Source: a virus (lineage: Duplodnaviria > Heunggongvirae > Uroviricota > Caudoviricetes). From it: 24,319 nt of DNA. The stretch spans positions 1 to 24,319 of IMG/VR virus record IMGVR_UViG_2923302340_000011. One strand, 5' to 3'. How positions within the stretch are numbered: position 1 is the first letter of the stretch; every line of letters starts with the position of its first letter. A program made the position numbers. Of the stretch, positions 21,001-24,000 are shown piece by piece.

Positions 21001-24000
21001 TGCATCTCTTCGACCTGAGCAATGGCCAGCTCTTCGTCACGCATGTTCTGCATGATGATGCGACGGCGGCGGTAAGCCGGGTCCGCCAGATTCTGCGGAT
21101 CTTCATCCGGCAGGCGACGCAGGGTCATCTGCGGATTCACTTCATGCTTCGGCTTGACATATCCCGGCGTAAATTCAGAGGTGGAGCCGCCACGGGAACG
21201 GATAACCTCACCGGAAACAATCGGCGAAACGTACAGCGCCATGTTTACCAGTCCCGGAATTTGTGAGAGATAGACTTTCTCCGTGGTGAAGGGATAGCTC
21301 TCACGGAAAAAGAGACGCAGAAACAGCGGATCAAACTTAAATTTCTGCTCATTTGCCGCCAGCAGTTGGGCGGTTGTGTACATCGACATAAAAAAATCCC
21401 GTAAAAAAAGCCGCACAGGCGGCCTTTAGTGATGAAGGGTAAGGTTAAACGATGCTGATTGCCGTTCCGGCAAACGCGGTCCGTTTTTTCGTCTCGTCGC
21501 TGGCAGCCTCCGGCCAGAGCACATCCTCATAACGGAACGTGCCGGACTTGTAGAACGTCAGCGTGGTAGCTGGTCTGGTCAGCAGCAACCGCAAGAATGC
21601 CAACGGCAGCACCGTCGGTGGTGCCATCCCACGCAACCAGCTTACGGCTGGAGGTGTCCAGCATCAGCGGGGTCATTGCAGGCGCTTTCGCACTCAATCC
21701 GCCGGGCGCGGTTGCGGTATGAGCCGGGTCACTGTTGCCCAGCGGCTGGTAATGGGTAAAGGTTTCTTTGCTCGTCATAAACATCCCTTACACTGGTGTG
21801 TTCAGCAAATCGTTAACGGCATCAGATGCCGGGTTACCTGCAGCCAGCGGTGCCGGTGCCCCCTGCATCAGACGATCCAGCGCAGTGTCACTGCGCGCCT
21901 GTGCACTCTGTGGTGCAGCTGCCAGAATGCGGCGGGCCGTTTCCACGGTCATTCCGGGGGTTTCTGCCAGAACGCGCGCCTGTTCTTCGCGTCCGTGAGC
22001 CTCCTCACAGTTGAGGATCCCCATAATGCGGCTGTTTTCTGCCGCAACCGCTGCGGTGATCTGCGCGTTCACGTCCGGCTGCGCCGCGCTGGCGTTTTCG
22101 CCCTCCGTCGCTGGCACCACGTCAGTAACGTCAGCCTGCGAAGCAGTGGCTGAAACAGTTGTTGATTGAGTCTCTTTGGTCATTCGCCCTCCTGAGAGAC
22201 GGGATTTACGTGCATCCAGTGCATCACGCATGACGGTGATCGCATCGGTGCTGTTAACAAGTTCATCAGCCAGTCCGGCATCAATGGCCTCCTGACCGCT
22301 GTACACTGCAGCCTCGGTATCCAGCACAGCCTGCACGGACAGGCCGGTATATGCCGACACCTTCTGCGCAAACATCCGGCGGGTTGCATCCATCCGGGAC
22401 TGCAGTGTCTCCCGGACGTCATCCGGAAGATGGCTGTAGGGATTGCCATCCACCTTATGGCTGCCGCTGTAAATCAGCGTGATTTCCACGCCCTGTTTCT
22501 CCAGGGCAGCACCGTAATTACTGTGAGCCATCATGACGCCGATGGAGCCTGTCCGGGCGGTCTGCGTGACCAGACGCCGGGAGGCGGCACTGGCAAGCAG
22601 CTGACCTGCACTGCAGTTCATGTCGTTGGCCAGCGCCCATACCGGTTTTATGTCACGCACACGGGCGATGATGTCAGCGCAGTCAAATGCCCCCGCCACC
22701 ATTCCGCCTGGCGTGTCCATATCGAGCAGAATGCCGTCCACCATCGGGTCGCTGGCAGCCTGTTGCAGACGGGCGATAATGCCGTTGTAACCGGTCATCC
22801 CCGAGTACGGCTGCAGCGCCCGCGTCCGGCTGACCAGCGTGCCGGACACCGGCAGCACGGCGATGCCGTTCATGACCTGATAACTGCGGGCCTGTCGTGG
22901 TCCGTCATCATCACCGGATAATGCCAGCGTCGCGGGTGCCCCCTGGGCAGTCAGGCTGTCGCCGGACACCGCATCCGTCAGGCGGCTGATCCCAAGCTGG
23001 CCTGCAAGCGCACAAAAGAAAACCCGCGCATAGGCGGGTTCAAGCATCAGCGGCTCATTAAAGCCATGCTGGCAATATGCGGGAGATTACGCAGCTCTGC
23101 TGTCACTCTTCTCCTCCTCTGTTGATTGTCGCAGCCCGGATTCAAATGCCGCAGCCGCCCAGGCGGGTGGTTTAAGACCGGCTGCACGACGCTCCATCGT
23201 TTCACGGACCTGCTGGGCAAAAATTTCCTGATAGTCGTCACCGCGTTTTGCGCACTCTTTCTCGTAGGTGCTCAGTCCGGCTTCTATCAGCATCACCGCT
23301 TCCTGAACTTCTTTCAGACCATCGATGGCCATACGACCGGAGCCTATCCAGTCGCAGTTCCCCCAGGCACTGCGGGCTTCCTGAAAGCTGAAGCGCGCTT
23401 TTGAAGGTAACGTCACCACGCGGCGAACGATGGCCTCTTCCAGCCAGCACAGAAACATCTGGCTCGCCTGACGGGATGCGACGAATTTTCGCCGCCCCAT
23501 AAAGTGCGCCCACGACTCGTTCGCGCTGGCCCGTGCCGTGGAGTAGCTCATCTGGGCGTAATTCCGGGAAAGCTGCTCATACGAGACACCCAGCCCGGCA
23601 GCGATATACCGCAACAGTGACTGCTCAAAAACGGAGTAGCCGTTATCCGTGTCCTGAGCCGTCTGCAGGTTCAGTGAGTCACCCGGCATCAGGTGCGGCA
23701 CTTTTGCGCCTCCCAGCCGGACCGGTGCTGCGGCGTAATACGCGGCAATTTCACCAATCCAGCCGGTCAGCCTTTCCCGCTGCTCCTGACTGTTCGCGCC
23801 CAGAATAAAATCCATCGCTGACTGCGTATCCAGCTCACTCTCAATGGTGGCGGCATACATCGCCTTCACAATGGCGCTCTGCAGCTGCGTGTTCTGCAGC
23901 GTGTCGAGCATCTTCATCTGCTCCATCACGCTGTAAAACACATTTGCACCGCGGGTCTGCCCGTCCTCCACGGGTTCAAAAACGTGAATGAACGAGGCGC

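Follow-up and report, generated by a model that had tools for sequence, protein, structure and literature searches.

Does the broken reading frame of the head decoration gene D in this prophage reflect a real mutation, or an error in the sequence as recorded? The window (the whole stretch of 24,319 nt analysed here) contains the late structural region of a lambda-type prophage of E. coli, carried on the minus strand (Table 1), with an Ant/Arc moron and then K, I, J and the tail-fibre genes downstream of L. D has the same place as its counterpart in lambda, whose product is a head decoration and head-DNA stabilisation protein (gpD of 110 aa; NC_001416 5747-6079; PF02924), with C/nu3 on one side and E on the other in a late operon of the lambda type, and the DNA of the D region is 99.5% identical to that of lambda over 600 nt. 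The difference from lambda is that D, as recorded, encodes no full-length gpD; it is the gpD gene by descent, and it is not intact in this record. Judged from the sequence, the single extra base responsible is most likely an artefact of assembly or of the consensus.

Table 1. Features of the window, with positions counted from its first nucleotide.
Feature	Position	Strand	Description
Host gene dusA	542-1579		
Integrase	1668-2765		
FI, DNA-packaging gene	19927-20320	minus	two one-base deletions ~8 nt apart
E, major capsid gene	20362-21389	minus	1028 nt, with two one-base insertions
D, head decoration gene	21445-21778	minus	334 nt including stop, split over two frames
Last 40 codons of D (TTLTFYKSG...AISIV)	21445-21567	minus	in the next frame
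Truncated D product	21527-21778	minus	70 native + 13 out-of-frame residues = 83 aa
Extra base in D	21568		A on the plus strand, T in the sense strand; gap column in alignments
C, protease/scaffold gene with nested nu3	21788-23106	minus	start codon GTG at 23106
Portal gene	23087 to window end	minus	
Order portal-C-D-E-FI-FII-Z-U-V-G-T-H-M-L			colinear with lambda

The initial annotation had described a +1 frameshift in D, with a switch of frame between ...AADQTS and TTLTFYKSG... and a coding span that is not a multiple of three, and had proposed an alignment to lambda D as a check. The length can be read directly from the sequence, and the alignment to lambda D places one extra base exactly where the frameshift had been reported (plus strand gcgtggt-A-gct; sense CCAGC-T-ACCACG), as do alignments to the prophage of E. 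coli HH45, which is the closest intact one, and to another 15 relatives. Because the base does not lie in a homopolymer, the position of the insertion is unambiguous. Translation from the ATG at 21778 gives the native protein up to ...AADQTS, followed by the out-of-frame residues and a stop at 21527-21529, so that D is not one uninterrupted ORF of ~110 codons; the frame breaks after codon 70, and the remainder of the gene continues in the next frame as the annotation had stated. Both pieces are recognizable by the Pfam profile HDPD (PF02924), the first covering profile positions 2-82 and the second 79-113, and the 110-aa protein restored by removing the extra base scores 77.7 bits over positions 2-113 of 116.

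Five further interruptions, which the annotation had not mentioned, lie in the neighbouring head genes. Compared with lambda and HH45, there are six single-base indels in all within 20155-23063, one in C, one in D, two in E and two in FI. In C, one C of a CC pair is lost at 23063/23064, 43 nt into the gene, which leads to a stop after 19 codons, and a 419-aa ORF restarts at the ATG at 23047. E carries an inserted C at 20998 (GGC-C-AG) and an inserted T at 20689 (GAAA-T-GACC), while the two deletions in FI shorten CCCC to CCC near 20163 and GGG to GG near 20155. FI has in addition an in-frame deletion of 3 nt near 20094, which is shared with relatives and is a natural allele. Four of the six indels are located in runs of 2-4 identical bases (CC, C to CC, CCCC and GGG), and the two T insertions, in D and E, are outside any run. 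No uncompensated frame-breaking indel occurs in the other ~21 kb of the window, which comprises portal, FII, the tail genes Z to J, integrase and dusA. The length differences found there are two in intergenic homopolymers (positions 34 and 6873), in-frame differences of 3 and 12 nt, and compensated indel pairs, the last only inside divergent tail-fibre or J DNA.

For the indels of C, D and E, copies were sought with 61-nt queries centred on each indel, such that an identical copy would score at least 99%. In 2,665 complete E. coli genomes there are 3,702 copies of D, and none of them has the insertion. Searches of complete E. coli genomes were likewise negative for the C deletion (0/4,552 copies) and for the E insertions at 20998 (0/4,471 copies) and 20689 (0/989 copies), and in each search the indel is the sole difference between the query and its best matches. 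Scans of species-representative genomes, viral contigs and metagenome contigs gave no exact match to the D junction, and among ~15 billion proteins the source contig is the only one on record for the truncated D product and for the frameshifted N-terminal product of E (136 aa). D (110 aa), E (341 aa) and FI are intact in every one of 17 independent relatives retrieved as loci, and neither of the FI deletions is present in any of the 17. By these comparisons of sequence, the four indels searched for (the D insertion, the C deletion and both E insertions) are private to a single assembly, with the proviso that the genomes compared include no true sister of this prophage, and that for a very recent mutation absence elsewhere would be expected. 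Candidate sister copies had been picked out as L003 (by way of the 419-aa C protein), L004-L013 (the repaired C allele), and L017 and L018 (a rare Z allele); they were rejected as sisters, being mosaics only 97-98% identical to the prophage, and were kept as members of the comparison panel.

The genes were repaired in silico by removal of the three inserted bases and restoration of the three deleted ones. The repaired C protein (439 aa) is an exact match to P0106, found on 16 other contigs (24 by index), the repaired D (110 aa) is an allele present on at least 1000 contigs, and the repaired E (341 aa) is identical to lambda gpE (CAPSD_LAMBD). The repaired FI product matches no protein on record. 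Within 20300-24319 there are no private substitutions relative to a 15-member panel, and the only private positions are the inserted bases themselves. Against the same panel, FI has private substitutions at 20186/7, 20204 and 20260, and ~26 private substitutions lie in the tail half (13412-19900), where no 1-bp indel is private. The head segment has the make-up of a normal lambdoid mosaic, in which portal and C are near-identical to the type represented by L005-L013, D and E are near-identical to those of the lambda/W lineage (L001, L014 and L015), and the switch lies near 21800, at the C/D junction. This switch could be a product of natural recombination or, conceivably, of a consensus that is a chimera between two copies of the prophage in one genome.

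How unusual this spectrum would be for a decaying prophage can be estimated from known mutation rates. Wild-type strains reportedly have a substitution:indel ratio of ~10:1 (attributed to Lee et al. 2012). In coding sequences of mismatch-repair-deficient E. coli, there are ~6.0 substitutions per 0.85 small indels, from which we derived the indel fraction used here (~0.12 per coding mutation), and natural indel rates climb exponentially with homopolymer length (PMC8510543). With this fraction, the probability that four indels would accumulate in C, D and E before any substitution is ~2e-4, and it is ~1e-3 when FI is counted too (six indels and at most five substitutions). The chance of all six indels falling in 2.9 kb, or 12% of the 24.3-kb window, is ~1e-4, and this rises to ~6e-3 when the calculation is restricted to the 10.9 kb that are colinear with lambda. 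Neutral decay predicts substitutions alongside the indels at ~7-10:1, spread over the whole element, and mutations held in common by related isolates; we did not find the former, nor, for the four indels with a dedicated search, the latter.

Indels that are private to one assembly, and that interrupt otherwise perfect common alleles with no other kind of change, are what residual consensus errors characteristically leave. Long-read and hybrid bacterial assemblies are known to contain errors of this kind, which fragment genes into frameshifted pseudogenes (PMC12007338), and the indels described here resemble them in being single-base changes that create frameshifted pseudogenes in one assembly and that revert, on repair, to reference alleles. 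They differ from the usual long-read errors, which are genome-wide and favour longer homopolymers, in being limited to 2.9 kb and in that two of the six are outside homopolymers. We infer, with reasonable though not full confidence, that the cause is technical, and any reason why only the C-FI stretch was affected is likewise inferential. The extra base in D would then be one of six indel errors left over from assembly or polishing in a ~2.9-kb block of head genes, which might have been built from error-prone data (long reads or low-coverage gap-closing reads) and left uncorrected, unlike the rest of the window. A plausible setting for this is a set of repeat segments, near-identical but not identical, that were perhaps bridged with long-read or gap-fill sequence. 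In the true prophage, gpD would be normal with 110 aa, gpE (341 aa) would be identical to that of lambda, and gpC would have 439 aa.

The source chromosome (5,071,057 bp) could offer such a setting. Exact protein look-ups place the J, H, Z and 419-aa C proteins of the window in this E. coli chromosome (AVS49871, AVS49878, AVS49882 and AVS49884, respectively), which is not itself a member of the RefSeq complete-genome set that was searched, the best match there being 98.4% over 10.3 kb. The U protein is encoded three times in this chromosome (AVS47570, AVS48938 and AVS49881), and the Z and H proteins are each encoded twice, in identical copies. Given these multiple copies of U, Z and H, the chromosome carries several similar lambdoid prophages, up to three of them with identical tail-gene alleles, and several similar prophages in one chromosome are a classic trouble spot for assembly and polishing. 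A simple model of unpolished repeats, in which the errors persist because short reads cannot polish exact repeats, was considered and is insufficient, since the Z-H region is equally repeated and has no indels.

The main alternative is that the frameshift is real, with D a true pseudogene in a defective prophage that has recently acquired single-base indels in C, D, E and FI. We regard this as possible but rather unlikely. The frameshift does stand in the recorded sequence, E. coli often carries defective lambdoid prophages whose frameshifts are genuine, and related E. coli prophages have genes annotated as frameshifted (the tail fibre in L002 and gene I in L015). Furthermore, FI, E and D apparently have no protein accession, there being a single accession between AVS49882 (Z) and AVS49884 (C), which suggests that the three genes were annotated as pseudogenes and left uncorrected in the source record. 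The present case resembles those defective prophages in its chromosomal location, at dusA, and in having structural genes interrupted as recorded; it differs from them in that neither substitutions nor IS insertions accompany the indels, in that the mutations have no shared lineage, and in that only four head genes, adjacent to one another, are damaged. In portal, C, D and E taken together there are four indels and zero private substitutions, where neutral decay would be expected to leave ~7-10 substitutions per indel, and repair of C, D and E gives products identical to common alleles. The death of a single head gene makes the entire prophage neutral, and decay should then be even along it, yet all six indels are in 2.9 kb. 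The four indels that were searched for occur in no other genome, and so have no lineage history, and natural indels favour long homopolymers, whereas these are in runs of 1-4. A variant that would account for the confinement of the damage is that the head genes (C/nu3, D, E and FI) have been selectively knocked out and the tail module (Z to J and the fibres) kept intact, which would be a possible early step from a siphovirus prophage towards a tailocin of the F-type-pyocin kind, where selection on the tail genes would restrict damage to the head genes. This head-less tailocin is a small subset of the case for real mutations, and we consider it very improbable. Three observations count against an artefact as well: the clean state of the other 21 kb demands a special local cause, which is an assumption; the T insertions in D and E are outside homopolymers, and errors of polished nanopore or 454-type data seldom look like this, although PacBio at low coverage or Sanger gap-fill could account for it; and FI combines panel-private substitutions with a repaired product that matches no recorded protein.

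It is scarcely credible, by comparison, that programmed +1 ribosomal frameshifting carries translation of D past the extra base, or that D functions as a split protein, even though both halves keep their native frames and match HDPD. Recoding sites are conserved among homologues, but this shift is seen in 0/3,702 D copies, and the sequence AGC-U-ACC has, by inspection, no slippery or prfB-type stall motif. At the junction, the second piece of D has neither its own start codon nor its own ribosome-binding site, the only ORF in the second frame being TTG-initiated with its start far upstream, and the five similar indels in adjacent genes cannot all be recoding sites. Both forms of this explanation were rejected for want of conservation and of a motif. 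The programmed -1 frameshift of lambda G/T is instructive in this respect, as its slippery heptamer GGGAAAG is intact in the window at 17412-17418, just before the G stop codon, and the site is conserved in all relatives; the shift in D has neither a slippery heptamer nor such conservation.

If the indels are consensus errors, as we favour, the main value of the observation concerns data quality. The record makes a lambdoid prophage that is probably functional look head-less, with four genes as pseudogenes, and taken at face value it would mislead calls of prophage viability, counts of pseudogenes and pangenome clustering. If, on the other hand, the indels are real, the outcome is at best an ordinary prophage pseudogene within an ordinary defective prophage, with a small chance of tail-only domestication. 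In that event, a gpD cut at residue 70 would have lost the last, C-terminal third of its HDPD domain, and, by analogy with lambda head assembly, the double break in E and the truncation of C/nu3 at codon 15 would leave the element without capsids and with its tail genes intact; the loss of capsids follows from what is established about how lambda heads are assembled. Knowledge of gpD itself is unchanged under either outcome.

Several other features of the window are of note. Between L and K there are 1.75 kb of extra DNA (11664-13411), which encode an antirepressor (Ant) and an Arc-family repressor. This moron occupies the same site in some other E. coli prophages, with 98.4% identity to one genome. 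An alternative identification of the insert as an IS element, which would have meant decay, was rejected since it is the known Ant/Arc moron of those prophages. The outer-membrane gene lom, present between J and the side-tail-fibre gene in lambda and in close relatives, is missing from this position, with the J stop at 6917 and the side-tail-fibre start at 6864 directly adjoining. In the tape-measure gene H (14436-16985), an in-frame deletion of 12 nt near ~14858 gives a protein of 849 aa rather than 853 aa; the deletion is present in no panel member, and the source chromosome has two genes for the identical H protein (AVS48935 and AVS49878). Finally, in the interval 542-4486, the host gene dusA and a dusA-type tyrosine integrase adjoin the tail-fibre end of the prophage and not its early-gene end. 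In a related genome, the same dusA interval also has a DinI-like gene and a scrap of a capsid gene, and the arrangement suggests that part of a second integrated element persists at dusA, or that elements lie there in tandem.
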